This document shows positions 10,749 through 50,005 of a DNA stretch of 64,000 nt, in pieces. Positions within the stretch are counted from its first letter, which is position 1; the number at the start of each line of letters is the position of its first letter. A program made the position numbers and the translations under genes. The stretch is from the NCBI GenBank assembly GCA_965215265.1, contig OZ244048.1, forward strand, positions 2,176,001 through 2,240,000, in the 5' to 3' direction. Origin of the DNA: Candidatus Poribacteria bacterium. GTDB lineage: Bacteria; Poribacteria; WGA-4E; WGA-3G. The notes under the pieces were generated by a model that saw only the letters and a program-made list of their open reading frames with translations, searched no databases and was not told where the DNA came from.

Positions 10749-10839
10749 TGATTACCACAGCAGCCTAAATCGGCTCTGACGAGATTTGTATAGGTATTAT
10801 GAAAGCAGCAGCCTTTTATAATGCTTCAGGAGACAAAAA
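10749..10839 (+). repeat. family-I repeat unit with partial core
   Basis: GGCTCTGACGAGATTT...GCAGCAGCCTT...AGACAAAAA; near-identical to 13057-13147. Confidence 0.85.
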
Positions 10840-10953
10840 TATGTAGCCGCGAGCTGATGCTCGCGATTCTTAATCGGAGATTCGCAGGAAAAGGTATTGA
10901 CCTAAAGGTTAATTAATACCTTACCTGCGAACTTGAACCACAAAAAAGGAACT

Positions 10954-12000
10954 ATGAATATGAAAAAAACGATTACTATTTTGAGCATCGTCGCCATAAC
11001 TTGCCTGTTGACATGGCGATTTGTTCAGTCCGATAGCCATGTTGGAATTGGGCCGGTGGAAGCCACAGAAGAGCATTCTGCAAACCAGACATCTACAGAC
11101 GATGAGAATCTACAGATTGTGGCTGAATTTAAATGGAACGGCCAACGTCATCAAATTTCTCTCGCAGACTTGAACGCCGCAATAGCAGAACTGCCGGTTT
11201 ACCGCCAGCAAAACTATGAAAACCGGGCGGACAAAGCCGAATACTTAGAAGAACTGATAGAGGAACGCCTCAAAATCCTACGTGCTACTGACGAAGGGTT
11301 TGATAAACTACCAGAACACCTCAAAAAGTTAGATGACTATACCCATCAACTCATGTTGGAAAAACTGACCGAAATTGAAGTAGACCAGAAAATCGTCTAC
11401 ACCGATGACGAACTCATGGCACACTATGAGGAAAACATAAGCGAGTACATTGAAGACGCTAAAGTCCGAGCAACCTGCATCAGCCTCGACGATGAAGACC
11501 TGGCCAACGAAACGTTAGATGCAATTATAGCAGGCAAAGACATCGTAGAAATGGCAAATGAACTCTTTCAGGCAGGCAAATTAGCCAACGGCCCCGGAAC
11601 CAATCGCGATGAACCCGGGAACACATATCTCTTTACAAAGGCAGTCTCTCCACGCTGGGAGGAATTCATCAACGCCACATTCGCCCAAGAAATTGGCGAA
11701 ATCACCGATACCGTCTTTGAGACCGAGGTCAACGAGCAAACATTCTATCTTATTTTCAGAAAAGAGGAACACCACCCCGAACGCCAGATGGAATTCGACG
11801 AGGTTAAAGACGATATCATACGCGACATCGAACGCAACAAGAAGCAGCTGCGCATAAACGAGTGGTTAGAAGAAATTTATGAACGCGGGAAACTGAAGAC
11901 CTACCCTGAGAATATTCCTACTCCCTCAGAACCAGCGGAAGAGGAAAATCAAACTCAAGAGCATCCCTCAGATACCAAACAAGGAGAAAACGAGAATTGA
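10954..12000 (+). CDS. PrsA/PpiC-like periplasmic peptidylprolyl isomerase/chaperone
   Basis: Signal/anchor; SurA-N-like helices; degenerate parvulin domain (KVRATCI...F.NATF....GEI...FDEVK..I). Start chosen at the ATG after the AAGGA RBS. Confidence 0.7.
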   Translation: MNMKKTITILSIVAITCLLTWRFVQSDSHVGIGPVEATEEHSANQTSTDDENLQIVAEFKWNGQRHQISLADLNAAIAELPVYRQQNYENRADKAEYLEELIEERLKILRATDEGFDKLPEHLKKLDDYTHQLMLEKLTEIEVDQKIVYTDDELMAHYEENISEYIEDAKVRATCISLDDEDLANETLDAIIAGKDIVEMANELFQAGKLANGPGTNRDEPGNTYLFTKAVSPRWEEFINATFAQEIGEITDTVFETEVNEQTFYLIFRKEEHHPERQMEFDEVKDDIIRDIERNKKQLRINEWLEEIYERGKLKTYPENIPTPSEPAEEENQTQEHPSDTKQGENEN

Positions 12001-13049
12001 AAACTTTAATCACAACGTTAACACACGCACGTGCCGCCCAGAACAGCCTCGCATATCTGAGCCTATTCGCGATTATTGTGACACTACCCCTATTCTATGC
12101 ATGCGGCGACAAAGCCATCGGAGCAGACGGAACTGTCATTGCTGAATTTGAATGGAACGGGAAGCACAAAATCACACTCGAAGAGATGATGCAGGAAATT
12201 AGTGAGCTCCCTGAATACAAACAACGCAAATATCAGGACAAAGAGGGACTCGAAACCTACATGCTCCTCATGGCAGAGAGCCGGCTCATCCTCAACCTCG
12301 CACGCGATATGCAACTCCAAGAAGATCCCGAAATCCTCAAAAAGGTTCAGGACTATCTTCATGAGCTAATGGTAAAGAAAATTACCACCCAGGAAGTTGA
12401 TGACAAACTCTCTTTGAGTGAAGCGGATTATATCAGCTATTACGAGGCACATAAGCAAGACTACATCCGTCCAGCACAAGTCCGACTCCTATGTATCACC
12501 CTGCTCAACAAGGAGCGCGCTGAGGAAGTCTTCGCGGAAATCAACGCAGGCAAAGACATCGCTGAAGCTGCACAGGAACTCTCCGATAGAGGCGAGCTCG
12601 TCGGACCAGGCGCAAACCCCGCAGCACCCGGCGATACCGACTACATTGGTAGAAGCGCCTTTCCATCAGGCACAGAACCTTTCTTGGATGCAGCATTCTC
12701 CGCTGAAATCGGAACATTCCACGACAAGATAGTTGAAGTTGACGTGCAAGGACAGAAATACTACATGATCTTCCGAAAAGACGAAGCACGCGATGAATAC
12801 CAAAAACCTTTTGAGGAAGAAGATGTACGCAAAAATGTCGTCCGAAAGGCTGAACGCGAAAAACGACAAGCACTCATGAAAGAGTGGATCGCCAGCCTCA
12901 GGGAACGCGCTGAAGTCATCACATACATTGACCGCATCCCTGAAGCACAAAACGAAGAAGCACCTGCCGAAACCGAACCTGAGGCACAACCCGAACAAAC
13001 GCCTGAGGCACAACCCGAACAAACGCCTGAGGACAATCAACCTGAATAA
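11997..13049 (+). CDS. PrsA/PpiC-like peptidylprolyl isomerase/chaperone, lipoprotein (paralog of the upstream gene)
   Basis: Lipobox-like YACG; shares AEF.WNG..ITL and the parvulin-like region; C-terminal 24-bp repeats encoding PEAQPEQT. Confidence 0.7.
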   Translation: MKTLITTLTHARAAQNSLAYLSLFAIIVTLPLFYACGDKAIGADGTVIAEFEWNGKHKITLEEMMQEISELPEYKQRKYQDKEGLETYMLLMAESRLILNLARDMQLQEDPEILKKVQDYLHELMVKKITTQEVDDKLSLSEADYISYYEAHKQDYIRPAQVRLLCITLLNKERAEEVFAEINAGKDIAEAAQELSDRGELVGPGANPAAPGDTDYIGRSAFPSGTEPFLDAAFSAEIGTFHDKIVEVDVQGQKYYMIFRKDEARDEYQKPFEEEDVRKNVVRKAEREKRQALMKEWIASLRERAEVITYIDRIPEAQNEEAPAETEPEAQPEQTPEAQPEQTPEDNQPE

Positions 13050-13056
13050 CCAATTT

Positions 13057-13303
13057 TGATTACCACAGCAGCCTAAATCGGCTCTGACGAGATTTGTATA
13101 GGTATTATGAAAGCAGCAGCCTTTTATAGTACTTCAGGAGACAAAAAGTTGTAAAGTGTCTAAAGTTACTACACAAGACTTTAGACACTTTACAGCCCTT
13201 TAAACTTGAAGGAACCACGTTATGCTATGCCTAATGCGTCTCCGACGAGATTTACACTGTCATTAACAAAGCATAAAGCGTGATGGTACGGAGATATACA
13301 AAA
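13057..13303 (+). repeat. family-I locus: two units separated by a hairpin
   Basis: Units start at 13088 and 13246 (CGAGATTT); hairpin TGTAAAGTGTCTAAAGT/ACTTTAGACACTTTACA at about 13150-13194. Confidence 0.85.
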
Positions 13304-13307
13304 CACC

Positions 13308-14591
13308 ATGAAATGCAAAATCGGGGCTTATCTCTTGCTAACTCTGATGTTTATCAGCACGGGGACAGCACGCACTTTTGACACCATCATCGCCTACGTC
13401 AACGATGATGTCATTACACAACGCGAACTTGATACCTTAGTCAAACAACGCGCCATGGAACTCCAACAGATGTACCGTTTCACTGAACGAGAGGCACTTC
13501 AGGAAGCCGAGCGGCAACGCCCAGAACTCCTTGATAGGCTCATCCGCCAAATGCTCCTCCTTGAAGCAGCACTCACCTTGAAAGTCAACGTGACATCTGT
13601 AGAAGTTGAACAATACATCCAAGACTTTAAAAAGAGATACCAGATTAAGACAGATGAGGAACTTCAAAAACAGTTGAATCGCGAAGGACTCACCCTCATC
13701 GGGTTTCGGGAACAGACAGAACGCAACCTCAAAGCAGAGAAGTTAGTCATGGGCAGAATTATACCACGACTCCAGATTCGCGACAGTGAAGTCCAAAAAT
13801 TTTTTGAAGAGAATCGGGACCAACTCCCAACTAAATCAGATAAGGTCCGATTCCGGCACATCTTTGTCGCTTTCAAACCGACGCAGACGGAACGTGACAC
13901 CGCACTGCATAAAATTCACACCGCACGAAACGACATCGAAAAAGAACCAGCGCAGTTTGAACGCATCGCACGGCAAGAAATCGACGACTCCAACAACTCT
14001 CAAGTCGGCATACTCATAGAAGCTAGCCCCGAAGAGCTCAAAGAGTTCCCCGAAAACTTTCAAAATGCGCTAACCAATCTCAACGCTGGTGAATTTAGTG
14101 AACCCATCCAAGGAAACGAAGGGCTCTATCTCTTCAAAGTAGAAACAAAAACTGACACGCTCATCGCGTTTCGCTATCTCATCGTTCCGATTAAGTTGAC
14201 TGAAGAAGCGAAACTTGAAGCACGGCTGCACGCCGCCAAAATTTTTACAAAATTGGAGGAAGGACAACACTTCAACACCCTCGCCGCTGAACATTCCGAC
14301 GATACGGAAACACGCGAAGACGGCGGCGACCTTGGCGTCCGCTCCCTGATTGAAATCAATCCAAAAACACGCAGAATCGTTGAAGCCCTCGAAGAAGGGA
14401 CTTACAGTCAACCTTTTGAAACCGATTCCGGAATCCACATTTTTAAACTAGATGAACGAAATACACCCGAACTGAGCGAGGCCGAGAAAAAGCAGATTAT
14501 CTCTATACTCCGCCAGCAGCGCTTTCAGGAAGAATGGGATGCATATACCGATAGCCTCCTCGAAAACGCTTACGTCAAAATAAAACCGTAG
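13308..14591 (+). CDS. surA: SurA-like periplasmic chaperone/PPIase
   Basis: DTIIAYVNDDVITQREL SurA N-terminus, two parvulin domains (RFRHIF; LAAEHSDD...GGDLG), AYVKI C-terminus. Confidence 0.85.
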   Translation: MKCKIGAYLLLTLMFISTGTARTFDTIIAYVNDDVITQRELDTLVKQRAMELQQMYRFTEREALQEAERQRPELLDRLIRQMLLLEAALTLKVNVTSVEVEQYIQDFKKRYQIKTDEELQKQLNREGLTLIGFREQTERNLKAEKLVMGRIIPRLQIRDSEVQKFFEENRDQLPTKSDKVRFRHIFVAFKPTQTERDTALHKIHTARNDIEKEPAQFERIARQEIDDSNNSQVGILIEASPEELKEFPENFQNALTNLNAGEFSEPIQGNEGLYLFKVETKTDTLIAFRYLIVPIKLTEEAKLEARLHAAKIFTKLEEGQHFNTLAAEHSDDTETREDGGDLGVRSLIEINPKTRRIVEALEEGTYSQPFETDSGIHIFKLDERNTPELSEAEKKQIISILRQQRFQEEWDAYTDSLLENAYVKIKP

Positions 14592-14680
14592 AAGCAATCT
14601 CCAACTCGCTACGCCTTTTCCACAATGAAAAAATACACACCTTTTTTTCATCCTGTTTCTCCTCAGGAGGGGGACGCACT

Positions 14681-17600
14681 TTGAACTTTCAAGACGCGCC
14701 GGCAAGCGGCGAACGAAAACCTAAATTTTGGGACACTTGCGCAGCTGCCATAATCGCACTACTCGCAATCCCGTACCTCCACTCTCCGGCAGCACCCGCG
14801 CATCCCGCTCTTAACGCACGGCTCATCGCTCAAACACCCCCGCCGGAACAGACAGAGACACCCACTGAGCCCCAAGAAGAAACAGACGAAAAAGAAAATG
14901 CCCCTACATTCAATCCAGAGCAGGAGACACCTGACTCCGGGTTTGTCATCGGCGACGGAGACGAGATGGTGATGCACGAGAATCTCGTACAAATCCATGG
15001 AAACGCTCTCGTCAAATTTGGGGATATCACTTTGCGGGCAGACCACGTCTGGGCCGATTTCACCGAAAACGTCAATTTAATCCGCGCATCCGGGAACGTA
15101 CATCTCATCACCGGCGACGAGGAGACATTCTCTGATGAACTCGTCTTTAACCTCGAAACCAAAAAGGGCATCGCACGAAACGGCTTTACCTACAGCGACC
15201 CCTGGTACTTCGGCGGGAGTGAAATCTTTAAAATTGAAGATAAGACATCTTACGTCCGAAGTGCTAGCTTGACAACCTGTTCCCTCAAATATCCACACTA
15301 CTATTTTAGCGTCTCACGCGTTATCATACGAGTCAACGACGAGCTCATCGCCAAAAATATCATACTCCGCATCGGAGGCTTCCCACTCTTCTATTTTCCA
15401 GCCATCCGACGCGATCTGCAGAAGGGAAAAATCGCTAAAATTATTGTCAAAGTCGGAACCGATAGCTACCAAGGCCCTTATATCAGTATCATTCAACCTG
15501 TCGCACGCAAAAGACGCTACGATGGCGCACTCCTCTACGATAGAAGTGCACGCAGAGGACACGGCTTCGGGCTTGAAACAAAATATCGATTCAATGATAC
15601 ACAATTCCAAGAAATTTATATCCCTATTCCACCCGACCTAACCGCCGCGCAACGCTCAAAATTGGAGGATAAAGCCAAAGAGATACGCGAACGGCTCGAA
15701 GGCAAATACAACCGATATTGGCTAAAGCAAATTTTCCTACCTTATGAAATTACGGATGCTGACTTCAAACGCGCGAAAGAGAACGCTGAAGAACTGCATA
15801 ATCAACTTGTCCAAGAAAACGCAGATTTCGCACAACTCGCACAGCAGCATTCTAGCCACGAAACTCGATACGAAGGGGGCGACTTAGGGTTCATCACATT
15901 CGGAGAACTGATTGAGGACACAGAAAAATCAACGCCTGCCTCTAAAAACACAGATAAAAATACCGAAACACCGCAAACCCAATCCGGATCAGAAGACGCA
16001 GCACAAACAGACGACGATACGCCGCAATCCGATGATAAACCACCACAAACAGACGACGATGCACCGCAATCCGATGATGAACCACCACAAACAGACGACG
16101 ATACGCCGCAATCCGATGATGAACCACCACAAACAGACGACGATACGCCGCAATCCGGATCAGAAGACGCAGTGCAGCCCATTGGGACACCCAAACTCGA
16201 CCCGATTTTAGAAACAGCAGCATTTCAACTAGAGGAAGGCCAAATCAGTCAGGTTTTAAAGACTGAATCCGCTTTTCACATCCTCAAAATCGAACGGGCC
16301 CTTGATGTATACGGAGAACGCGAAATACAGGTCCGACGGATTGATATTAACATTGAACCCAGCGACGAAACACGGCAGAAAATACGCGAAACCGCAAATC
16401 AAATTTATCAACGTGCACACGAAGGCGAACCCTTGGAAAAACTTGCCGAAGAATTCGACGAAGCCGCTTTATCAGAAATCAACCAAGGCAAAGGACTCCC
16501 ACTCAATCAAATGGAGTCCGGATGGCAATATTCTGTCAGAAGGTTAGAGAAGCCCGGCGAAATCATACAACGCCGGCCAGTTTCCGCACCAGAGGGGTTA
16601 TACATCTTCCAATTAATTAAAAAAGAAGAGACTCCCTCCTTTGAACAACTCGCTCAAGAATTTGAATTGGAATGGGAAACCTTCCAACAAGAGGTCATGC
16701 GTTCAACCGAAGAAGAGAAACAGGAAAACGCAGAAAAAAACCAAACAGCCGCAGCTGCCGAACCTCTACAAGCTAAAAGTATAGCACCGCAACAAAAGAA
16801 AAAAACAGAAGAAAAAAACGGAACACCTACACAACTAGACGAGCAGCCGGACGCGGAGAGTGAGAACACAACCCAAGAAGAAGATGAAGAAGATGAAGAA
16901 GATGAAGCAGCAGCAGCAGAGCAGGGTGTCTATCGAAAACACGGATTTCGCGGACAGTGGGAAGATCCCCGCATGGTCGCAGCCGAAGCACGCAGTTTGT
17001 ACACCGGCGAATTCAGTCGTGTCGTAAAAACAAAAAAAGCGATCCGCCTTATTAAGGTCGATCGAAAACGCACTTACCGCGGGGATTTCTACTTCTACGG
17101 CAAAGATGCATACTCCTTCGACAGGCAGAACGCAACTCGTATCGGCAGAACATGGATATCCCGATGGGGACACACGCAAGCTATCTATACACCCTGGGAT
17201 AATCGCCAAGAAGGACGCCGCCCTATCAACTTTACCGGACGCCTCGAATGGCGCGCCCGAAACTACAAAGAAGAACTCCGACTCCCCGGAGAATCCACAC
17301 TCAAATCGTTTGGACTCCTTAACTACGGCTCCGCATTCACCACATGGTCTACTCAAGATGTCGATGAAAACAATAATCTCAAATTCTCAATGGAAACTAT
17401 CGGAGATTTCGCAGGACGACTCGAAATCCGACATATCTATGATTTCACCCAACAAGGCACTACATCTTTACAAAAACTCCCACAACTCTCCTTAAACTTT
17501 TCACGGATGCGGTTTAGCCAACTGCCTCTCTTTCGAACCATTAACTCCGGGTTAGTCTACCTCTCCGAAAAAGCCCAAAGCGACAAACCTTTTCTCTCAC

Positions 17601-18754
17601 TACTCTCTGTACCAACATTAGATAACACCAGCTTCGATCTGGACATGGAATTCGGAAATTTCTTTAGACAAATCTATAAAGGCAAAAACGAGGAAGAGAG
17701 AGATGTCTTCCTGCAGACGCTTGACTTCGGTTTTGACCTGCGCAAACAGGCAACCTTACTCATTACCCCGCTGCGCGAATTGGTAACCAACATCAATCTG
17801 AATACAAACTTTATCTGGCACGACCGGGACCAGGACAAAAACAGGAACATTATCCGCGGCGTTTATAGTTTCAACGGCTCCGCCACAAATACACTCTTCC
17901 GTGTCTACAATATTAGTTTCATCCCACGGGCACGTAAACTACGGCACGAGATGCAATCATCACTCCGGTTTGATTACCAACCCCCTGTTGATCGGAACGA
18001 TAATCTCTATCCCTTCGGCCCCAGCACCTATTTCTACGAACGGAAAAGGATCGTCTATAACTTCAACACGAACATCGAAATTAAGACACAGCGCAGCCAA
18101 TCCCCACATCGTATCTTCCATTTTGACACCCGACTCACTGCCGACTTTACCAAATTCGACCCGCTAAACAGACGCAAATATGAACCGATCGAGAGTGATT
18201 TCACTATCATACCGCTCCCCAATCGCAGCCTGAACATGACCGTCCGACTCACCCACGACCCCAATCCACACCCAGAGGACGGTACCATGTTCAAAGTTGT
18301 CGGAATCCGTTCCAACATCCGATACACACGACAGAAGTGGAATGTCAGCATCGGAAACTCCTTTAGCAAACGGCACACCGCCATTCGAGCATCACGCTCC
18401 ATCACCGCCAATGGCAGATACCGATTTAACGAGAACCTCGATTTCGATTTCAACCTCATCTTTTATCCGATCGACAGGGACTTCTACTCACAACGCATTA
18501 GTATCAATCGGAACTTACACGATTGGAACTTGCGCGTCTCTTGGAGCCGCATCGGCATTAAACGCGGGCCGCCACCCCATAACAACGTCCGACAAGATTT
18601 CACTTTTCAGATTAGCTTAATTCCAGAACCAGCAGTCTCAATGGGCATCGGCTACGATGCCACTACCGAAACATGGGGACTCCGTACCTTACCCGCCGGC
18701 GCACCTTACAACGCTTTCGGGGTAGGAAATGCACTCGGACGTTCTTACTTCTAA
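14681..18754 (+). CDS. lptD: LPS-assembly protein LptD with inserted parvulin (PPIase) domains
   Basis: OstA-like N-domain (GNA.V...ITLRAD...A.GNV...FNLETKKG...LTTC....PHY...IGGFPLFYFP), barrel strands ending RNLHDW...DFTFQISL, and internal FAQLAQQHS...GGDLG...AAFQLEEGQISQV. Confidence 0.85.
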   Translation: MNFQDAPASGERKPKFWDTCAAAIIALLAIPYLHSPAAPAHPALNARLIAQTPPPEQTETPTEPQEETDEKENAPTFNPEQETPDSGFVIGDGDEMVMHENLVQIHGNALVKFGDITLRADHVWADFTENVNLIRASGNVHLITGDEETFSDELVFNLETKKGIARNGFTYSDPWYFGGSEIFKIEDKTSYVRSASLTTCSLKYPHYYFSVSRVIIRVNDELIAKNIILRIGGFPLFYFPAIRRDLQKGKIAKIIVKVGTDSYQGPYISIIQPVARKRRYDGALLYDRSARRGHGFGLETKYRFNDTQFQEIYIPIPPDLTAAQRSKLEDKAKEIRERLEGKYNRYWLKQIFLPYEITDADFKRAKENAEELHNQLVQENADFAQLAQQHSSHETRYEGGDLGFITFGELIEDTEKSTPASKNTDKNTETPQTQSGSEDAAQTDDDTPQSDDKPPQTDDDAPQSDDEPPQTDDDTPQSDDEPPQTDDDTPQSGSEDAVQPIGTPKLDPILETAAFQLEEGQISQVLKTESAFHILKIERALDVYGEREIQVRRIDINIEPSDETRQKIRETANQIYQRAHEGEPLEKLAEEFDEAALSEINQGKGLPLNQMESGWQYSVRRLEKPGEIIQRRPVSAPEGLYIFQLIKKEETPSFEQLAQEFELEWETFQQEVMRSTEEEKQENAEKNQTAAAAEPLQAKSIAPQQKKKTEEKNGTPTQLDEQPDAESENTTQEEDEEDEEDEAAAAEQGVYRKHGFRGQWEDPRMVAAEARSLYTGEFSRVVKTKKAIRLIKVDRKRTYRGDFYFYGKDAYSFDRQNATRIGRTWISRWGHTQAIYTPWDNRQEGRRPINFTGRLEWRARNYKEELRLPGESTLKSFGLLNYGSAFTTWSTQDVDENNNLKFSMETIGDFAGRLEIRHIYDFTQQGTTSLQKLPQLSLNFSRMRFSQLPLFRTINSGLVYLSEKAQSDKPFLSLLSVPTLDNTSFDLDMEFGNFFRQIYKGKNEEERDVFLQTLDFGFDLRKQATLLITPLRELVTNINLNTNFIWHDRDQDKNRNIIRGVYSFNGSATNTLFRVYNISFIPRARKLRHEMQSSLRFDYQPPVDRNDNLYPFGPSTYFYERKRIVYNFNTNIEIKTQRSQSPHRIFHFDTRLTADFTKFDPLNRRKYEPIESDFTIIPLPNRSLNMTVRLTHDPNPHPEDGTMFKVVGIRSNIRYTRQKWNVSIGNSFSKRHTAIRASRSITANGRYRFNENLDFDFNLIFYPIDRDFYSQRISINRNLHDWNLRVSWSRIGIKRGPPPHNNVRQDFTFQISLIPEPAVSMGIGYDATTETWGLRTLPAGAPYNAFGVGNALGRSYF
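15979..16172 (+). repeat. 42-bp in-frame tandem repeat (QTDDDTPQSDDEPP) inside lptD
   Basis: About 3.5 units of CAAACAGACGACGATACGCCGCAATCCGATGATGAACCACCA, bracketed by two CAATCCGGATCAGAAGACGCAG copies. Confidence 0.9.
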
Positions 18755-18762
18755 CATTATTA

Positions 18763-18908
18763 AATTGAAGACTCATAACCTAGAATGGCTCCCACTGGGA
18801 GCCTACTTAGGCATAGTCTTTTGAAGTCAAAGCATCAGAAGGCTCCGACGAGATTTGTAAAGGGTTTAACATTGCAGCAGCCTTGTATCGGGCTCCTGTA
18901 GACGAAAA
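18763..18908 (+). repeat. family-I locus (core plus one unit)
   Basis: GGAGCC...GGCTCCGACGAGATTTGTAAAGGG...GGGCTCCTGTAGACGAAAA. Confidence 0.85.
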
Positions 18909-19100
18909 GGCGATTTCAAGCAACTGAGCGCGGTTTTATATGAATGGAGAATCTACTACAGCACTGGATACCGGGTTTATTTCGGCGTTTTCCGCACCAC
19001 AGCTATTCTGCTTTGTGGCGGAACTAAACGCACACAACAGCAAGACATTGCCAGAACACAAAACTATTGGAACGACTTCTTAGTACACAGGAAGGAACAA
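18909..19100 (+). pseudogene. addiction-module killer toxin (RelE/HigB-like, HI1419/TIGR02683-type), 5'-truncated
   Basis: Frame from 18909 reads GDFKQLSAVLYEWRIYYSTGYRVYFG...ILLCGGTKRTQQQDIARTQNYWNDF. No start codon; it abuts the repeat. Confidence 0.75.
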
Positions 19101-19138
19101 GGACAACAAATACCGAAACGAGGCTTCAGAGGCGCACA

Positions 19139-19492
19139 TTGCCTTTCAATCCCCCTTTTCTTAAAGAACTTGCTGAACTGGGGTTTGCCAAAGTTTATCT
19201 GGAAGCTGCATGAGCCGATTTTGACAAGGATAGGAACATTGAAAGACTATTGCACGCCATAAAAGAGGTAGCAGAAGCACAAAGCGGAATTGGCATCCTT
19301 GTTGCATGGACACAACTCAGTTATCAGAATCTTGCTTATCTTCTTCGTGTCAAACATCCATTGCAATTGGATAAAACGTTAGATTCAAAAACAGAAACCG
19401 CTCATCAACCTAACCGTAGCGTGGACAGAGACGCTAATATCATTGTCATCGACTTCGTGAACGGAAAAACGGAGAAAATCGGAACAGATTGA
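19139..19492 (+). pseudogene. addiction-module antidote HTH protein (HI1420/TIGR02684-type), internal stop
   Basis: FLKELAELGFAKVYLEAA*ADFDKD...LLHAIKEVAEAQSGI...TQLSYQNL; in-frame TGA at 19211-19213. Confidence 0.65.
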
Positions 19493-19562
19493 AACACTGA
19501 AACCGAAGCTGTTTTTTTATGAAACGAAGACACACCGACTGACTCAGGGGCATTCCGATGCC

Positions 19563-20288
19563 TTAGTCTGCTTCAACATCCACAAGTAGCTCACGTCCAT
19601 TCAACGGTTGCACCGGACGACTATTGCCCTGCATAATCGTTTCAAATGCCAAAATTTGCGATTCAGACATTTCAATAGGTGTCGTTATTATGAACCATTT
19701 GACCCCTTCCGAACACGGCGGAGTCGTTAACGAACCCTCGTAACGATAGGTATGCCTCGTGCTTGGCAACAGTTCGTCGGCATTGACGGTAACACTCTCA
19801 ATGCTGCGCATCTCGCCCGATACGGATGGCAAATTGCTCCAGATTGAAGCAAACGTCGGATTATCACTTCCACGTTCTATTAACACACCAACCACAGCCA
19901 ACGTTCCATCCTCACTTTGGTGAACGTAGTGCATCTCCATGTCAAACGCTCTACCGGCTACTGTATGTTCACCGGGGGCGTGGAAGTGGAATTGTTGCAA
20001 TTCATACCTTGTGCCATCAACCTCAATCCAACTCCCTTCATTGTATGCAACTTGAATAGTATGTCCAGTATTGCGAATGTTCAAAACCGTTGGCTGGTAT
20101 TTGAAAGTCATCGCTGGAAGTTCAACAGCTATCGGGTTCACCAAATCAATCGGCGATTGGTGTATCCCCACAGCACAAATGGCATACTCCGGATTTAATT
20201 GCCCCCAGATGTTTGGACCATTTTCTTCTGTATAACCCCACTCTACTGTGTGGGATTCACTAACTAATTCTTCGTGTATGATATCCAT
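19563..20288 (-). CDS. alpha-class carbonic anhydrase
   Basis: WGY...GP..W, QSPIDL, QFHFH..GEH, EMHYVH, YEGSLTTPPCSEGV.W, N.RPVQPLNGR. Confidence 0.93.
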   Translation of the reverse strand: MDIIHEELVSESHTVEWGYTEENGPNIWGQLNPEYAICAVGIHQSPIDLVNPIAVELPAMTFKYQPTVLNIRNTGHTIQVAYNEGSWIEVDGTRYELQQFHFHAPGEHTVAGRAFDMEMHYVHQSEDGTLAVVGVLIERGSDNPTFASIWSNLPSVSGEMRSIESVTVNADELLPSTRHTYRYEGSLTTPPCSEGVKWFIITTPIEMSESQILAFETIMQGNSRPVQPLNGRELLVDVEAD

Positions 20289-20332
20289 TATAAACTTATA
20301 TCCATGAACTATAGTAGATTTAGTACGCTATC

Positions 20333-20414
20333 TTTATCCGTATGCCATTTCAGGATGTTTACCAAGAACACGAAGCAAACGTTCATCTGCACCTTCCAAG
20401 ACATAGTCAGGCAT
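20333..20414 (-). pseudogene. orphan C-terminal gene fragment, possibly PhyH-like
   Basis: Reads PDYVLEGADERLLRVLGKHPEMAYG*, starting right at the family-I repeat boundary. Confidence 0.4.
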
Positions 20415-20417
20415 ACG

Positions 20418-20676
20418 TTTGTTTGTCTACAGGAGCCCCATACAAGGCTGCTGCAATGTTAAACCCTTTCCAAAACTCGCTCTTTAGTATATTTCAGCAC
20501 AACAACGATGGCTGTAATGAACAACGAAAGCACAAATCTCGTCGGAGCCATTTTAGGTTTTGATTTTAAAAGACTATACCTAGTTAACCTCCGACGAGAT
20601 TTACATCGGATTTAACAATACATAACCCTTGATGGTACCAAGATATACAAAAAGATGGTACGGAGATATACGAAAA
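20418..20676. repeat. family-I bidirectional array (two minus units, core, one plus unit and a truncated unit)
   Basis: AAATCTCG ends at 20541, CGAGATTT starts at 20595, with a 53-bp core between them. Confidence 0.85.
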
Positions 20677-20820
20677 GAAGTGTTTGTTCTTTTGACATAT
20701 TTCTAATACCTAAAAAAGCGTGTCTCCTGTTAAGATTCTTAAAAGTTTTCCGTTAATAACTCATGTCCTATTAGTATTCTGTGATAACTAGGGAAAGTCG
20801 TTCAGGCTGTTTACCCAATT

Positions 20821-20921
20821 CAGAGCCGTTTATGTTTAGATTCATAGCATAAGAAGGCTCCGGCGAGATTTATACAGGTTTTAGCATAGCAGCAGCCTTG
20901 TTGCGGGCTCCTGTAGACAAA
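20821..20921 (+). repeat. family-I core plus one unit
   Basis: GAGCC...GGCTCCGGCGAGATTT...GGGCTCCTGTAGACAAA. Confidence 0.8.
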
Positions 20922-21709
20922 TGAACCAAATCGATGTGGGCAGATGCAATGATATCGGCACCCATTCGCCCTGAAACTGCCTGTCGTTGGCAGCATTGAT
21001 GACTGTGCAATCGGTGAATGTCACTCGCGCCCCCTTCAATGACTTTTCCTGAATCTTGATACCGTAACCGACGGTATTCTCAACTGTGCAGTTATTAAAT
21101 TCAATATGCCCCCTGGTCCATCGTCTCGAATCTTTGAAACGCGGATACCCGTTCCGTGTTGACTGCTGATGTAGCAATTTTCAAAGTGCATCGTCACAGC
21201 CTCGGATTCACCGGTGGTGTGCGCCAAGAACACTTCGATACCGTCTCCGCTGTTATCGACGTTGACGTTCTTGCAACCGCCTCTTCCAACGTCATCCGCC
21301 ACTCGCCCTTTGGATACTGTCCATACCAGCGATGCCAGCCAAATTGTTCGAGTACGAGCCCTGTGATATAGTCCTGTTTCCACATCCTGAAAGTCGCGCC
21401 GTAGCCACGGATGGTGAGATTCTCCACATTTTGTGCTGTTAACATGGAGTCCCCTTTTCCCCGATATTCCCCGCGTTTTGCGGTAACGACTGTGCCGGGT
21501 TCAAAAAGCAATTCTTGATTCCCGGCAAGCCGAATTGGCTGAATTATCCAATCGGTGTGCATATTCGGCACAAACACGCGTTTCGCGCCGGAGTCAATTG
21601 CTGCCTGCAGCGTCGTTGTCGCATCTTCAGGATCAAAACCCCACCACGCAGCATTGGCAAAAGTCTTTTCTCCAGAACGAATCTCTTCAATCGCTTCAAG
21701 ATTTTTCAT
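20922..21709 (-). pseudogene. right-handed parallel beta-helix (pectate lyase-like) protein, frameshifted and truncated
   Basis: WWGFDPEDATTTLQAAIDSGAKRV... continues across three frames (GCKNVNV/DNSGDGIEVFL...FENCYI; FNNCTVENT.GYGI) and ends in the repeat. Confidence 0.75.
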
Positions 21710-37098: not shown

Positions 37099-37107
37099 AC
37101 TGAATTT

Positions 37108-38002: not shown

Positions 38003-38340
38003 TTTTTGTATATCTCTGTTTTTTCGTATATCTCCGTACCATCACGCTTTATGCTTTGTTAATGACAGTGTAAATCTCGTTTTTTTGTATATTTCAGCCC
38101 GATAACGCCTGATGTTATGTTTATTACCGTGTAAATCTCGTCTGAGATTCCTTAGGTTTTGACTTTAAAGACGATACCTAAGCAGGCTCAGACGAGCTTT
38201 ATGCAAAGGTTATCAAAACATCAATCCGTATTGGGCCCCTGTAGACGAAAAAGCGAGATTTGTAAAGGGTTTAACATAGCAGCAGCCTTTATTGGGCTCC
38301 TGTAGACAAAAGACCTTTATGGTACTGCAGTAGACGAAAA
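38003..38340. repeat. largest family-I bidirectional array (2+2 units with truncated outer units)
   Basis: Minus units end at 38079 and 38140, core 38141-38192, plus units from 38193 and about 38253. Confidence 0.88.
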
Positions 38341-43525: not shown

Positions 43526-43594
43526 TTTCGATAATTGTTTTTAGAGTTCTACATTTTTGCCTGAATATTTGGAGACATCTGCGTCAGGATTTGT

Positions 43595-44524: not shown

Positions 44525-44531
44525 GTTCGGA

Positions 44532-45792: not shown

Positions 45793-45949
45793 AGTGATTA
45801 TCTCCTGCTGAAAGTTAGAAATTCGTTAAACTTCCGGGTAAGGGCGGCCTGGGCTGACTCAACGATATCCGCCCGTTTTTGTAAATTCGTTCAGTGAGGC
45901 AATTAGGTCATGAATTTCCTTTGGCAATGCCCTAGTTAGGTTGCGCTTC

Positions 45950-46600
45950 TCACTCTTCTTCGCCCACGCGCTGTTCAATGGACGGTTGCAAATCGTCGCT
46001 CATATTCCTATTGTCAGTCTCAGGCAGCAGTGTTGATAGAACAGAGAACGGGTTTGACGGGCGCTGCTGGACTGCCGTATCAACACTTTCTGCAATATCA
46101 CAAGAGCAAGTGCCTAAGTTAAGTTCAGCACCGCATGCTGAACATAAACCTTCGCATGTTTGAGCGCAGAGTGGCCAGACTGGTATTTCAAGTACAAGGG
46201 CTTGCCGGACATCCTCGCTCAATTCCAAGGTGTCCCCGTCATAGTAGCGCTCCTCACTTTGAAAGAGTTCCTCGATACTTTGCAATAACTTGCTGTTTCC
46301 GTCTTTGGACTGCGTTTTTTTTTCCATTGGGCAAAACAGCAATTCAAGCGTTGAGGCAATGTCCACTTGAAACTGCTTAAGACAACGTCGGCATTCAACT
46401 GCGATGGTAGAGATAATGTCGCCAGTGACATAAATATTATTCGCATCTTGCCGAAATAAGGCAATAGTGCAGGCAAGAGGCAGAATAAACTCAGTATCCT
46501 CAAGCGGGAGTTCAAGGGCAGTGGGTGGTATCCGGACCTCGTAAACCTTGGAATCCTCGTATCGCAAATCGTTAATGTCAAAAACCAATGTGTCTTTCAT
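45950..46600 (-). CDS. DUF177/YceD family protein
   Basis: C.RCL and PLC...C.GLC..CG..LN...C.C motifs; upstream of rpmF. Confidence 0.9.
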   Translation of the reverse strand: MKDTLVFDINDLRYEDSKVYEVRIPPTALELPLEDTEFILPLACTIALFRQDANNIYVTGDIISTIAVECRRCLKQFQVDIASTLELLFCPMEKKTQSKDGNSKLLQSIEELFQSEERYYDGDTLELSEDVRQALVLEIPVWPLCAQTCEGLCSACGAELNLGTCSCDIAESVDTAVQQRPSNPFSVLSTLLPETDNRNMSDDLQPSIEQRVGEEE

Positions 46601-46629
46601 GCTTGCATTCCAGTGGGGGTTTGCTGCTT

Positions 46630-47958
46630 TTAAAAAGCGACTTCTTCTTCTATTCTGATGAGCTGCGCGTCCCCTTTAACGTCTTCAAGGTTGTAAATTT
46701 GCGCGAGGGCGGTTTTCATATTTTTTTCTAGTGCCTTATGTGTAAGCATAACGAGTGATACGGTATCCGTGGCGTGTGGTTCTTTTTGTATAACTGAGGC
46801 AATGCTGATATCGCAGTTGCCGAGTATGGTACCGATTTTGGCTAGGACACCCGGCCGGTCTACGACGACAAAGCGGAGGTAATAGCGCGTCTCAATATCA
46901 TCAATAGGGCACAGAATCGTCTCGTTGCTTGTCTGGGGCGCGGCAAGCCAGGCTTGGGCGATCTGGGCTGGGGTACCTTGTTGTATGGATTTGGCTGCGT
47001 CAATAATATCAGCGACAACGGCACTGGCTGTTGGCATTTCGCCTGCGCCTTGCCCATAAAAGAGCGTCGGGCCGACAGCGTCGCCGATGACGCATACTGC
47101 ATTAAAGGCGCCCCCGACATTCGCCAACAGGCTCCGCTCTGGCACAAGCGTTGGATGCACGCGTGCCTCTACACGTTTATCATCTGTCAGTTTCGCGATA
47201 GCAATGAGTTTAATGACGTATCCGAGTTCCCGGGCGTATTGGATCTCTTTTTGGTTTATGCTTGTGATTCCTTCTACGTGAAGATTTTGCAGGGTGATGT
47301 TGCTGCGATAAGCGAGTGCAGTGAGGAGTATAAGTTTTTGAGCGGCATCAATTCCTTCAACATCGAGCGTCGGATCAGCTTCAGCGTAGCCTTTATCCTG
47401 TGCGGCTTTCAGTACATCTGCAAAATCGATGTCGCGTTCGTGCATTTCGGTTAAGATGTAGTTACATGTGCCGTTGACGATGCCGTAGAGAGAGTGAATC
47501 TGATTGCCGGCGAAACTCTCTTGCAAGGTTTTGATAATGGGTATGCCGCCTGCCGTGCTGGCTTCAAAATTGAGGCTTACTTGCTGCTGCGATGCCAATT
47601 GAAAGAGCTCCGCTGCATGTGCTGCAAGCAGTGCCTTGTTTGCGGTTACGACGGGCTTCCCGTTCTGGAGTGCGCGGCGTATCAGGGCACGTGCGTCAGA
47701 CACCCCCCCGATGAGTTCAACCACGATATCTATATCCGGATTGTCAACCACGTCATCCGGATTTGTGGTTAAACAGTCTGCAGGCAGCTCCACCCCGGTC
47801 CGTGTTGCCGGAAGTGTCTGTTTGACTATTTTTTTTAGGCATAACTGGATGCCACTGTTCTTAGCAATCAGGGCTTGCTGATTTATGAGGATTTTAGAGA
47901 CGCCTGTACCGACAGTACCCCATCCTAAGATACCTACATTGATACACGATTTATCCAT
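46630..47958 (-). CDS. hom: homoserine dehydrogenase with ACT domain
   Basis: GWGTVG, VVTANK, FEASTAGGIP, NGTCNY, GYAEADP, DRPGVLA. Confidence 0.96.
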   Translation of the reverse strand: MDKSCINVGILGWGTVGTGVSKILINQQALIAKNSGIQLCLKKIVKQTLPATRTGVELPADCLTTNPDDVVDNPDIDIVVELIGGVSDARALIRRALQNGKPVVTANKALLAAHAAELFQLASQQQVSLNFEASTAGGIPIIKTLQESFAGNQIHSLYGIVNGTCNYILTEMHERDIDFADVLKAAQDKGYAEADPTLDVEGIDAAQKLILLTALAYRSNITLQNLHVEGITSINQKEIQYARELGYVIKLIAIAKLTDDKRVEARVHPTLVPERSLLANVGGAFNAVCVIGDAVGPTLFYGQGAGEMPTASAVVADIIDAAKSIQQGTPAQIAQAWLAAPQTSNETILCPIDDIETRYYLRFVVVDRPGVLAKIGTILGNCDISIASVIQKEPHATDTVSLVMLTHKALEKNMKTALAQIYNLEDVKGDAQLIRIEEEVAF

Positions 47959-48113
47959 AACCGCAACCGCCTCTTTCTCTATGGTGTAGACGCGACACCG
48001 AGGCCGCGAATTTTGTGTGTTTTTTCTTTAACATGTGGGATTAACATTGAGCTCGTCATAGACTTAATGAATGGCTGTTCTAAGCGAGACTGAATTTGCA
48101 TGAACATAATAGA

Positions 48114-48187
48114 TCGGGGCGACTGGATTCGAACCAGCGACCTCTTGAACCCCATTCAAGCGCGCTTCCGGGCTGCGCCACGCCCCG
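48114..48187 (-). tRNA. tRNA-Pro(GGG)
   Basis: Reverse complement CGGGGCGTGGCGCAGCCCGGAAGCGCGCTTGAATGGGGTTCAAGAGGTCGCTGGTTCGAATCCAGTCGCCCCGA folds as a cloverleaf with a GGG anticodon; CCA not encoded. Confidence 0.95.
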
Positions 48188-48338
48188 TTTCTCTTTTTTT
48201 TGCGGCTCTCTTCTCAAAAACCGCTAATTTGACCGGAACCTTAGCCACGCATTCTTCAAAACGATTTTTTTCAGGACTTTACAATTATCCTTATTAATTA
48301 TACCCACTTTGCTCGCTTTTGTCAAATTAATTTTGTAT

Positions 48339-48830
48339 CTCACTTACCCCCTTTTTTTTTCAAGTTTTGTGATGAAAGGTTTTTGTTTGTAAACGTGTGA
48401 GAAAAGCAGTGGGTTAGAGATACCCGAAACCGGTAAATCCCACATCTCTGATAACCCGTTTTCAAGACATCTTCAAGTCTATTGCTATAAAAAAGCCTGC
48501 GTTGCGTCACTTGCTCTTTGTGCTGATAGCGGTGAGTGTCTAGCGAACGTTTAGCCTCAATGAACTCGCGTTGCGTTTGCCGCTTTCGGTAAAACGAGAG
48601 AAGTCGAAACAGAAAAGGTTGCTCCGTCCAATGGGTGGCAGGTGGCTCCCACCCGCCGAACTCCTCTCTCCTTGCAGGAGAGACAAAGAATACCTATCTC
48701 GCAACTTTCTACCTATCCTGCCACTGTCCTTCAGGACAGACAAAGAATACCTATCTTGCCACTTTTCTCACACACAAACCTAACAATATCACACACAGAC
48801 GACTCTCAGAAAAAAATGGGGGTAAGTGAG
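48339..48830 (+). mobile_element. second, inverted copy of the ~500-bp IS-derived MITE
   Basis: TIRs CTCACTTACCCCC and GGGGGTAAGTGAG; homologous to 3691-4189; transposase remnant with an in-frame TAG. Confidence 0.78.
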
Positions 48831-48844
48831 ATGTAAAGGCTGCC

Positions 48845-48874
48845 TTGACAAAATAATAGAGAGGTTGCTATACT
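48845..48874 (+). promoter_or_regulatory. strong sigma70-type promoter
   Basis: TTGACA-18 bp-TATACT with an extended TGn, upstream of GGAGGAG and the ATG at 48913. Confidence 0.6.
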
Positions 48875-48912
48875 AGAAGAAGTAAAGTAAAGAGAGTCAG
48901 GATGGAGGAGTT

Positions 48913-49671
48913 ATGCCTAGAGCAGGCGATGAAAAACCGCGCAGCGTCCGGGCGGCTTATGACGCACACTTCAAACAGAATCTCAACGTGCAGCTGGGGG
49001 AGAGACGCGGCCTGCCGATACAGGCAGAACTCGCCGTCAGCTACCTGTCCCTCACGATAGACATCGGCGTGATTTTGCGAAACGCCGCTGACCGGGCAAA
49101 CCTCCTCGCCGAGGAGCCGATTTTCCGCTATTTCCGAACGCATAATCTCATAGAGTTCAAAAGTCAAGCCGACGCTTTGACAGAGAGCGACTATTACCGC
49201 ATCCAGGCGCGTGCGTGTCTTTATCTGGCTGATAACAGGCTTTCAAAGCAGGCACTCACCTTGACGATTGTCTCCGCCCGCTACCCTCGCGCACTGCTCT
49301 CGCGGCCCTATTACAAGGGGCAATGGGAACGCGTCAAGCCGGGACACTACCAGATAACGGAGGTGTTTCCAGTGCATCTGTTAGTGTGCAACGAGTTGGA
49401 ACTGATGCGAGAGAATTATTTGTTGCTGCCTTTTACGGCATCGGCTATGGAGATTTTACAAATGGGAAAGAAACAGAATTTTTACGACACCGAAATGCAA
49501 GCGTTAGCAGACACATTCGGCAGCGAGATTCTAGAGAGAATTCCGCCTGCCGAACGGATGAAAGGGCTCAGTGCCGATGAATGGCTCAAGGTATTTCAGG
49601 GCTTGGCACCAGAGGTGCGCGCAGAACTCGTGCGGCAGCTGGAGGCAGCTGACAACGACTCCAACACGTAG
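48913..49671 (+). CDS. hypothetical protein, PD-(D/E)XK-like fold suspected
   Basis: ID..VI...HNLIEFKS..D.L motif and ERMKGLS.DE tail; strong promoter and RBS. Confidence 0.55.
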   Translation: MPRAGDEKPRSVRAAYDAHFKQNLNVQLGERRGLPIQAELAVSYLSLTIDIGVILRNAADRANLLAEEPIFRYFRTHNLIEFKSQADALTESDYYRIQARACLYLADNRLSKQALTLTIVSARYPRALLSRPYYKGQWERVKPGHYQITEVFPVHLLVCNELELMRENYLLLPFTASAMEILQMGKKQNFYDTEMQALADTFGSEILERIPPAERMKGLSADEWLKVFQGLAPEVRAELVRQLEAADNDSNT

Positions 49672-49767
49672 CAGCCGACGCGGTTGAAAGGACATCTGAA
49701 CACGGACGGTAAACTCACTGAACAGATCGGAAGAGTAAACTCACTGATATTTAAACTCACCTAACCA

Positions 49768-49800
49768 GGGGCGGCAACCTTCGCGTCGCTGCCCCTTTTT
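49768..49800 (+). terminator. Rho-independent terminator
   Basis: GGGGCGGC-loop-GCTGCCCC followed by TTTTT. Confidence 0.55.
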
Positions 49801-50005
49801 GTATATTTCAGCCCATCACCGCCTGATCTTTTGATAATCCTTGTATAAATCTCGCCGGAGCCGCTCTCTGTTTTGAATGCTAAACAGAAAACATCTCTGG
49901 CGAGATTTGTGCGAGGTTGTTTATTAGCTCTGCCGGTGCCGGGCTGAAAGAGACGAAGAATTTGTATATGTCCGAACTATACCGGTTTATGTTATTGCAA
50001 ATCTG
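49796..50005. repeat. family-I bidirectional array (1+1 units and a degenerate unit)
   Basis: AAATCTCG ends at 49854, CGAGATTT starts at 49901; GGGCTGAAA.AKAC ends. Confidence 0.8.

Follow-up and report, generated by a model that had tools for sequence, protein, structure and literature searches.

The window analysed here (the whole stretch of 64,000 nucleotides) carries, at seven loci, a non-coding repeat whose directional unit has the head CGAGATTT and an A-rich tail. A profile made from 335 distinct genomic units has 14 matches in it (at 10780, 13088, 13246, 18849, 20422(-), 20484(-), 20595, 20864, 38022(-), 38083(-), 38193, 38254, 49797(-) and 49901), in agreement with a preliminary description that had counted at least 14, and the strict pattern CGAGATTT-N(40-45)-AKACRAAAA matches 7 times, against 0 in 100 shuffles. 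The elements in the window are as follows, with strand and basis:

10742..10779, +, leader of a one-armed element, a partial core ending GGCTCTGA
10780..10839, +, unit with g-type head (strict pattern, profile)
13050..13087, +, leader of a one-armed element, beginning directly after a stop codon
13088..13147, +, unit (strict pattern, profile)
13225..13245, +, short leader ending TCTCCGA; the homologue in sister species G001 ends CCCCGA directly before an ATG
13246..13303, +, a-type unit with GGTACGGAGATATAC tail, ending 4 nt before a SurA-like start codon at 13308
18798..18848, no strand, core with a unit at its right side only; its left edge adjoins the end of a second repeat family
18849..18908, +, g-type unit with GGGCTCCTGTAGAC tail (strict pattern, profile)
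20422..20478, -, outer unit of left arm, g-type (profile)
20484..20541, -, inner unit of left arm (profile)
20542..20594, no strand, 53-nt core; hairpin with both heads (20534-20602) -15.3 kcal/mol, z -6.0
20595..20653, +, right-arm unit, a-type (strict pattern, profile)
20654..20676, +, 5'-truncated unit, a 23-nt tail piece after the A-run of the preceding unit
20826..20863, +, leader of a one-armed element (sequence comparison)
20864..20921, +, g-type unit (profile)
38003..38020, -, 5'-truncated tail piece at outer end of left arm (sequence comparison)
38021..38079, -, a-type unit, its reverse complement equal to 13246-13299 over 54 nt
38082..38140, -, inner unit of left arm, a-type with GGGCTGAAATATAC tail (strict pattern, profile)
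38141..38192, no strand, 52-nt core; hairpin with heads (38133-38200) z -4.66
38193..38250, +, inner unit of right arm with head variant CGAGCTTT (profile)
38254..38311, +, g-type unit (profile)
38312..38340, +, 5'-truncated unit at outer end of right arm (sequence comparison)
49796..49854, -, unit with a-type head and GGGCTGAAATATAC tail (strict pattern, profile)
49855..49900, no strand, 46-nt core; hairpin with heads (49847-49908) -17.1 kcal/mol, z -5.43
49901..49957, +, g-type unit (weak profile match, E 3.4e-4)

At three of these loci arms point outward from both sides of a core (20542-20594, 38141-38192 and 49855-49900) bounded by TCGGAG, TCTGAG or CCGGAG on one side and CTCCGA, CTCAGA or CTCTGG on the other; these are the 46-53 bp cores with imperfect inverted motifs from which units had been described as diverging. 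The other local observations of the preliminary description hold as well: 13246-13299 and 38026-38079, the latter as its reverse complement, agree at 54 of 54 positions (the longest exact run is 55 nt), the reused GTAAAGGGTTTAACA type is present at 18849, 20420-20479(-) and 38254 (given there as ~38253) with 93-97% identity, and all three outermost 5'-truncated, A-tailed units were found. The 10742 leader and its unit are 94% identical to 13050-13153, and that leader is not present in the orthologous spacer of G001. The core at 18798..18848, which has no left head, folds with a z of -1.45. An Rfam search of the window gave nothing at gathering score except a tRNA, and the E-value threshold added chance hairpin matches alone, far below gathering.

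A scan of the genome with a model of the unit, which had been suggested at the outset, gave 786 matches in 4.83 Mb, which form 415 clusters and include 563 full-length units. The smallest block gained or lost is the one-armed form of ~87-104 nt, in which a ~30-nt leader ending CTCCGA (or a near variant) is followed by a 58-nt directional unit (CGAGATTT...TAKACRAAA) and then an A-run. An arm consists of 1-6 units of mixed type with a tandem period of 61 nt, and in what had been called the palindromic core two one-armed elements meet head to head; the stem proper is formed by the invariant AAATCTCG-TCGGAG / CTCCGA-CGAGATTT pair together with a short centre. Genome-wide, junctions are divergent from a core ('-+') 150 times and convergent ('+-') 12 times, and core lengths peak at 52/53, 45 and 37 nt. 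Crude ORF calls make up 86% of the genome but contain just 15% of the unit bases, an intergenic bias.

What is shared between loci is about the size of one unit: among the 13,001 high-scoring segment pairs (HSPs) at ≥88% identity the median length is 60 nt (90th percentile 86 nt), and 9,138 of their ends fall at tails, 6,150 at heads and 10,714 elsewhere. Adjacent units in arrays have a median identity of 67% (≥90% in 23% of 73 pairs), and the closest relative of a unit elsewhere has a median identity of 95%. The median distance to the closest non-local relative is 1.04 Mb, compared with 1.23 Mb when positions are permuted, and it lies within 20 kb in 11.5% of cases where 2% are expected. Head and tail classes of units recombine. 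The part of the preliminary interpretation that saw a modular element, neither CRISPR nor a simple MITE, is thus upheld by unit-sized blocks, unlike neighbours, reused units, recombining head and tail classes and an excess of 5'-truncated over 3'-truncated pieces; the part that proposed addition by a reverse transcriptase was not supported (below).

Units by themselves do not fold: there is no alifold consensus structure across 505 distinct units, and the folding of 200 sampled units is about that of shuffles (mean z -0.15 sense, +0.06 antisense). The part that folds is the core together with both CGAGATTT heads, and that alone (z -4.7 to -6.0). Within any element, neither the two arms nor the two halves of the core are ever of the same type. 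None of 83 divergent partner pairs reaches 90% identity (median 52%); by class, 58 are a-g, 15 a-a, 6 g-g and 4 other, while simple arithmetic from class frequencies predicts about 36, 34 and 10 for the first three, and a1-a1 pairs do not occur even though a1 accounts for 196 of the 563 units. Core mirror positions are also paired less frequently when both halves come from one element than when the partners are permuted (0.53 versus 0.63 for 52-nt cores, 0.52 versus 0.64 for 53-nt cores and 0.61 versus 0.72 for 37-nt cores). Why are same-type pairs missing? They may be missing because they would form long perfect palindromes, which bacteria would not tolerate and which would be purged; the genome has an SbcD-like gene (25.6 bits, cut-off 24.4), which bears on palindrome cleavage.

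Comparison of empty and filled sites, also proposed in the preliminary description, yielded a single clean paralogous pair, in which a one-armed element of ~87 nt is present at 2303315 and missing at 1051604, without a target-site duplication. At six paralogous loci with flanks 87-97% identical, the core type, unit number and unit type differ. Sister species G001 has the same junctions and A-tails as this genome with different interiors at different loci: it has no units at three loci orthologous to window loci, and four regions of the present genome orthologous to G001 unit loci are without units here. Unit positions thus vary between sister species as well as among paralogous loci, and the repeat family is specific to one genus. 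Across that genus the unit head and tail are constant and the interiors have diverged, a constancy that suggests a factor recognising head and tail.

We think it probable, though well short of certain, that this is a genus-specific, very abundant, non-coding mosaic intergenic repeat with a BIME- or BOX-like organisation made of different parts, which is re-assorted unit by unit. Units may be re-assorted, added and lost where the invariant junctions (the joint of CTCCGA with CGAGATT, and the A-run) recombine or serve for template switching, and out-of-register events would leave 3' tail pieces behind. Start codons stand next to outer tails much more frequently than next to the opposite end of the element (counts below), and insertions before genes may survive because the A-rich tail (with GGAG in one class) would still permit translation. 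Template switching alone does not explain clean gain where there is no homology, so some enzyme or intermediate is missing from this account. Also against it are the excess of 5' truncation (below), which copying anchored at the 3' end would predict, and the constancy of head and tail across the genus. The GGAG of the tail stands at 12-14 nt from the start codon, compared with a peak at 6-8 nt for the GGAG native to this genome; a role of the tail as ribosome-binding site is therefore doubtful, and 'tolerated' is the safer word for such positions.

The first alternative, which we consider unlikely, is that the units are RNA modules selected by the host, parts of mRNA leaders that tune expression between or before genes, e.g. 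with a processing site between CGAG and AUUU and, behind it, a translation leader that is A-rich and unstructured. Outer tails do adjoin start codons: an ORF of at least 80 aa starts 0-15 nt beyond 110 of 485 outer tails and beyond 6 of 213 on the control side, with a sharp peak (29 cases) at a distance of 2 nt, and ATATAC-type tails face gene starts more often (60-67%) than GTAGAC-type tails (39-50%). The constancy of head and tail across the genus and the lack of structure in units, as expected of a leader, fit this idea too, and the unit head may match an RNase E-type cleavage word. However, orthologous genes in the sister species lack units, a start lies within 200 nt of 293 of 485 outer ends (leaving roughly 40% without one), many elements lie between convergent genes (e.g. 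49796-49957), and unit density along the chromosome is very uneven. In addition, the spacing of the tail's GGAG departs from the native optimum (above).

An equally improbable alternative is a classical MITE or foldback element moved by a DDE transposase in trans acting on 10-nt inverted ends (TTTTYGTMTA ... TAKACRAAAA), with one-armed copies and variable arms as decay products. In its favour are such inverted termini and the hairpin centre of two-armed elements, the dispersed and lineage-specific distribution of the copies, and the presence of IS630-family remnants in the genome. Against this, 272 of the 415 loci are one-armed, 162 of them with a leader and no opposite head; a single arm with its leader comes or goes as one clean block, in the one case seen without target duplication; the arms are never alike (0/83); and the identity common to loci is unit-sized rather than element-sized. 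Nor was an intact transposase, or a parent IS with the same ends, found among the families tested: profile searches of the genome gave 0 matches for rve and for the TnpB ribbon, 4 marginal matches for DDE_Tnp_1 and fragments alone for DDE_3, the IS630-family remnants being fragments.

Growth in the manner of a retroposon is less likely still. Here a transcript of the unit would be copied into DNA by reverse transcription starting at the A-rich 3' end, and the product joined at A/T runs; arrays would then grow at their distal ends, and copies left incomplete would lack their 5' part. All units do end in an A-run, copies are dispersed genome-wide, and minus-oriented units continue straight into the T-run of a head. 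Truncation on the 5' side (79 profile matches from model position ≥10 and 136 of 360 stray tails extending ≥18 nt) exceeds that on the 3' side (14 profile matches and 34 of 256 stray pieces), and the truncation points of tail pieces are spread across 18-56 nt. Of 213 tail pieces examined, at least 46 lie directly behind another tail; 39 of these are array-terminal, another tail piece comes after 3 and a full unit after 4. Part of the 5'-truncation excess consists of units interrupted by other repeats nested in them. On the other side, several short tail pieces can be read, from inspection of several without a count, as deletions between similar short repeats, ACGAGAT in the head and ACGGAGAT in the tail. 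Of 617 intact heads, 461 (75%) are preceded by the fixed core end CTC[CAT]G[AG], 110 by an A-linker and 46 by other sequence, so that it is a CTCCGA-type motif and not an A-run that stands before most of them. The scanned stretch has 7 sigma-70 consensus sites (12.3 expected), none in cores or units but one, which lies antisense over a unit, and the clean insertion has no target duplication. The one reverse transcriptase in the genome is flanked by an Avd gene (120 bits) and is therefore a DGR enzyme, and unit substitution rates (A 3.1%, C 4.5%, G 5.4%, T 5.9%) show no adenine-specific pattern. A variant in which units are copied singly from the 3' end via RNA or single-stranded DNA and joined behind CTCCGA sites or A-tails, by an enzyme that present-day models do not recognise or through off-target action of the DGR reverse transcriptase, is about as improbable; if true, such 3'-anchored copying would be a bacterial counterpart of SINE-like retroposition, with arrays built outward from a hairpin.

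We give the least credence, next to none, to a REP/RAYT system in which GTAG-tagged palindromes are spread by a Y1 HUH transposase: GTAG (as GTAGAC) is present in tail classes 2 and 4 only, where it adjoins no palindrome, and insertion occurs without duplication, but units are not palindromic, the majority of tails have ATATAC instead, and Y1_Tnp (PF01797) has 0 matches in this 95.4%-complete single-contig genome where control searches match in 6 of 14 genomes, which together largely refute it. CRISPR is rejected, since the interiors are interrelated and reused at distant loci and the arrays hold 1-6 units in 415 dispersed clusters. No partner gene was identified among the kinds named in the preliminary description (RAYT, transposase or reverse transcriptase). 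The seeding enzyme is neither a RAYT nor an intact resident DDE transposase of the tested families, and very probably it is not the DGR reverse transcriptase either; addition by a recombinase or other enzyme encoded elsewhere is possible, with no candidate found.

How does this family, as the unit-wise re-assorted mosaic that we favour, compare with known repeat systems? Like MITEs (Correia elements and foldback types) it consists of small non-coding copies that are scattered and confined to a lineage, and its two-armed form has a central hairpin between inverted termini; unlike them it is mostly one-armed, its arms are unlike, and no target duplication or cognate transposase was found. Eukaryotic SINE/LINE-type retroposons share its A-rich 3' end, new pieces behind older A-tails and 5'-truncated copies, the truncation here being due in part to deletion and nested insertion, but no suitable reverse transcriptase, internal promoter consensus or target duplications were found; this is resemblance only. 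Neisseria REP2 and Borrelia IR repeats lie directly upstream of genes, as many repeats do here, and bring translation signals (PMC3184786); they carry a promoter, ribosome-binding site, ATG and two internal stem-loops, whereas in the present family the unit lacks stem-loops, the ATG belongs to the gene itself and a search for a consensus promoter found none. The BOX element of Streptococcus pneumoniae (boxA-boxB(n)-boxC) is a composite whose variable tandem internal modules contribute little to the fold and whose size varies by locus (PMC3049150), and in these respects the two are alike. BOX modules lie inside complementary, inverted ends with target duplications; the units here are of mixed types (adjacent-unit identity 67%, as above) outside a central hairpin, with no duplication seen, and the sequences are unrelated. 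BIMEs are clusters of REP units with few module types in alternating orientation and conserved linkers, single or clustered (PMC3184786). Those of enterobacteria and pseudomonads resemble the present family in their hundreds of intergenic copies, mosaic modules, alternating orientation and conserved junctions; the family differs in its A-tails, its position against start codons and the absence of any RAYT gene from the search results, and in the modules themselves, which in BIMEs are G+C-rich REP palindromes of 20-40 nt and here are 58-nt unstructured directional units.

The units with a fixed head and an A-rich tail that the preliminary description reported in the window are borne out by the following counts: the strict pattern (head word-N(40-45)-AKACRAAAA) matches 7 times there versus 0 in 100 shuffles, and a unit profile built on 335 distinct genomic units finds 14. 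Each unit is a directional module of ~58-60 nt that starts CGAGATT and carries a variable interior between head and tail. Scanning the whole genome with this model, as proposed there, gave 786 matches in a single contig of 4,833,177 bases, 563 of them full-length, so that, at roughly 60 nt per unit, ~1% of the genome belongs to a single repeat family whose grammar is strict. The finer observations also stand: three cores, the short hairpin centres from which units point away, lie at 20542-20594, 38141-38192 and 49855-49900; 13246-13299 is the reverse complement of 38026-38079 at 54/54 positions; the GTAAAGGG unit type is found again at 18849, 20420-20479 and 38254; and all three truncated pieces with their A-tails were confirmed. 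Crude ORF calls span 86% of the genome and contain 15% of unit bases, which places the units between genes. Their density along the chromosome is very uneven, some 200-kb bins having 1-8 units and the one at 4.2-4.4 Mb 99. Within window positions 10000-21500 the short-read contigs of four sequencing runs (X5, X6, X7 and X9) stop inside units, the joints being short-sided cross-mappings of other copies; short-read assemblies are broken exactly at units of this family, which matters to anyone assembling such genomes.

The 786 matches form 415 clusters (204 with a single unit, 122 with two, maximum 10), in which 150 pairs of neighbours diverge and 12 converge. The gap between diverging units shows length peaks at 52/53, 45 and 37 nt, and tandem units are mostly spaced by 3 nt, giving a period of 61 nt. 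The sequence before 617 intact heads is a core end, CTC[CAT]G[AG], in 461 cases, an A-rich linker behind another unit in 110 and something else in 46, these last being for the most part an end of another repeat family, the second one listed for this genome (below). Because most heads directly follow core ends, the head belongs to the palindrome AAATCTCG-TCGGAG...CTCCGA-CGAGATTT. Folding agrees with this division: the three window cores with their heads fold much more strongly than shuffles (z of -6.0, -4.7 and -5.4), and single window units fold no better (z from -1.3 to +1.0). Genome-wide, 505 distinct units gave no consensus structure and 200 sampled units no folding beyond shuffles on either strand. 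Units stand on one side of the core only in 272 clusters, of which 162 have their inner unit behind a leader, a partial core of ~30 nt that lacks the opposite head. One-armed elements are balanced in orientation (131 plus, 141 minus); no replichore strand bias could be read for them, the cumulative GC skew having no usable or ordinary two-arm pattern. Gene strands are balanced.

Clustering of the interiors of the 563 full-length units gave three large groups (254, 89 and 85) and ~20 small ones. Values of pairwise identity spread broadly around one peak near 50%, with a tail reaching far upward. Head classes and tail classes are found in several combinations. Each unit is closely matched by one at some other locus (median identity 95%), at a median distance of 1.04 Mb versus 1.23 Mb for permuted positions and with a local excess (11.5% within 20 kb versus 2% expected). 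Adjacent tandem units are for the most part dissimilar, with a median identity of 67%, and reach at least 90% in 23% of 73 pairs. Alignment of clusters and flanks to the rest of the genome produced 13,001 alignments of at least 88% identity (median length 60 nt, 90th percentile 86 nt); alignment ends lie within 6 nt of a tail in 9,138 cases, of a head in 6,150 and elsewhere in 10,714. Because the shared alignments are unit-sized and often end at heads or tails, the unit is the shared piece, and the unit-by-unit modularity put forward in the preliminary description is supported.

The two arms of an element are of different types. Units flanking a core have a median identity of 52%, and in none of 83 pairs is it 90% or more. 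Their head classes pair across the core as a-g 58, a-a 15, g-g 6 and other 4 times, where our own arithmetic for random pairing expects ~36/34/10 for a-g/a-a/g-g, and the commonest class, a1 (196 of 563 units), has zero self-pairs across a core. Complementarity at mirror positions of the core is also lower within elements than with permuted partner columns: 0.53 versus 0.63 for 52-nt cores, 0.52 versus 0.64 for 53 nt, 0.61 versus 0.72 for 37 nt and 0.65 versus 0.67 for 45 nt. The elements are not true palindromes, and the different-type rule reaches into the core. Same-type pairs may be absent because long perfect palindromes would not be tolerated, in which case their absence would be a natural gauge of the strength of selection against such palindromes. 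An SbcD-like gene was found in the genome.

The window also holds the following other repeats:

Window 2197-2312, 3085-3207, 3770-3869, 6884-6982, 10876-10935 and 48677-48768: second palindromic repeat family, ~75 nt, ends like CCAGTGGCAGG...CCTGCCACCCACTGGG
Window 3835-4181 and 48349-48695: 347-nt inverted repeat, 93%, bracketing 44 kb
Window 15992-16199: 21/42-nt coding tandem repeat, D/P/Q-rich, in a 1357-aa PPIase-like protein
Window 59617-59844 and 60799-61027: duplication (97-98% identity) of two adjacent blocks, 1.18 kb apart

Genome-wide, the second family adjoins cores and also interrupts units, with a preference for positions behind GCAG or immediately past the head. In unit tails, the point between GGT and ACGGAG is the insertion site of a third, small hairpin (TTAAGAATTC-ACCCTGC...GCAGGG-ACAATTCTTAA). 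The right copy of the 347-nt inverted repeat adjoins tRNA-Pro (48114-48187), and run X7 carries a 42-nt shorter allele of the PPIase-like tandem repeat, bridged by a long contig.

Incomplete units are frequent. Profile matches start at model position 10 or later in 79 cases and end at position 50 or earlier in 14; stray tail words reach at least 18 nt into unit sequence in 136 of 360 cases (controls 4 of 173), and stray heads do so in 34 of 256. Among 213 pieces inspected, at least 46 lie directly behind another unit's tail. Many of the remaining pieces are units split by nested insertions, not truncations, the inserts being the second family (ends CCAGTGG...CCCACTGG) or a small GAATTC-bearing hairpin. 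On our reading of the sequences, deletions between similar head (ACGAGAT) and tail (ACGGAGAT) words, or between GACG words, could account for several of the short pieces.

Among 485 outer ends whose tail is complete, an ORF start (at least 80 codons) lies within 200 nt in 293 and within 0-15 nt in 110, with a sharp peak of tail-to-start distance at 2 nt (29 cases); for the 5' side of one-armed elements, used as the control (n=213), the corresponding numbers are 78 and 6. Of the ATATAC-type tails, 60-67% face a gene start; of the GTAGAC type, 39-50% do. Native genes have GGAG or AGGA 6-8 nt before ATG (such a word is present at 54% of 2,295 crude ATG starts), and the tail GGAG lies 12-14 nt from ATG; other tail classes have no GGAG. 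The tail is therefore at least tolerated as a leader. Promoter-like sites numbered 7 versus 12.3 expected in 10.5 kb with five loci, none of them in a core, and neither these sites nor terminators are enriched in cores or units.

Filled and empty sites were compared, as had been suggested: a one-armed element of ~87 nt is cleanly present at 2303315 and absent at 1051604 (flanks ~90% identical), with no target duplication in this one paralogous pair. At six paralogous loci (flanks 87-97% identical) the left unit is common, but the core type differs, as do the right-arm units in both number and type. In the sister species (G001; gene identity 75-82%) three loci orthologous to window loci contain no units, and a homologue of the short leader, ending CCCCGA, lies directly before the SurA-like ATG. 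That species has its own version of the family, to which ~35 of 38 loose-pattern matches belong as judged by eye; the interiors are other ones, and common to both species are the ATCTCCGA|CGAGATT junction, the A-rich tail, the tail pieces and the period of 61 nt. Four regions of the present genome orthologous to its unit loci contain none of our units. Because the loci of the two species differ in occupancy, the family has been active separately in both. The strict pattern matches 339 times in the present genome, 3 times in another genome (G004) and 0 times in 29 other relatives searched. This mosaic repeat is real, abundant and genus-specific, and it shows how the intergenic DNA of an uncultivated, presumed symbiont can be rewritten within one genus, even immediately in front of essential genes like the SurA-like one.

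Which enzyme moves it? Searches of the genome gave 0 matches each for Y1 (RAYT/IS200), rve and the TnpB ribbon, four marginal matches for DDE_Tnp_1, and only broken IS630-type fragments for DDE_3. Two further candidates are the following:

Genome C1:1418596-1422237 (L001): DGR cassette with FGE/GldK-like C-terminal target, Avd (120 bits) and reverse transcriptase
Window 48913-49671; genome 70807-71952, 82823-83815, 149699-150658 and ~60 more: Rpn/YhgA-like (Pfam Transposase_31) and related genes, by tblastn

The Rpn/YhgA-like nucleases, although expanded to 63 paralogous tblastn matches, were rejected as mobilisers, as 19% lie within 300 nt of units versus 15% of other genes (p = 0.37). According to PMC10400941, Rpn proteins are toxic defence nucleases for which intragenic antitoxin repeats are reported; runs of a four-residue GIEQ repeat in two of three query proteins recall these. 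Immediately downstream of the DGR reverse transcriptase there are two copies of these genes. That reverse transcriptase is the only one in the genome, and it is a DGR enzyme because the Avd and variable-protein genes adjoin it. Across 277 units in 23 tight groups, A is the base least often substituted (3.1% versus 4.5-5.9% at other bases), and DGR involvement was rejected on this spectrum. The earlier suggestion that arrays grow by reverse transcription is accordingly not supported and keeps only a low probability, the sole reverse transcriptase being of DGR type and the substitutions not A-biased. The mobiliser, if found, would probably be a new kind of enzyme.

Rfam, plasmid and phage collections contained nothing similar, and in a metagenome scan a head word of 17 nt matched 13 times, each time singly and never in a unit. 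A genome-collection scan with the strict pattern gave at least 112 loci; the 80 matches listed are all single and mostly in unrelated organisms, one among the matches listed being in a Poribacteria MAG. The loose pattern, run over 151 genomes of the phylum, appeared enriched in four (G041, G043, G144 and G146), which were rejected as relatives. In G041 the matches are a multicopy, coding-like repeat, in G146 a different 55-nt hairpin repeat, and in the other two accidental matches to CRISPR arrays:

G043:C14:116994-122472 and G144:C1:2734067-2735563: CRISPR arrays, inferred ~37-nt repeat, start CTTGAAACGAAAA, end CGAGATTGAAAC

The repeat of G146 (family f3; for example C1:417903-417957) has two small hairpins, starts CGAGATT, ends ACAAAAA, and is dispersed through that genome in ~36 near-identical copies.

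Literature searches turned up no account of intergenic repeats in Poribacteria. The family fails defining tests of REP/RAYT, MITE, BOX and CRISPR, and its strict grammar fits no described class (REP/BIME, MITE, BOX). By the descriptions in PMC3184786 and PMC3049150, BIMEs and BOX elements come nearest in organisation, and in placement before genes the nearest are the Neisseria REP2 and Borrelia IR repeats (PMC3184786).
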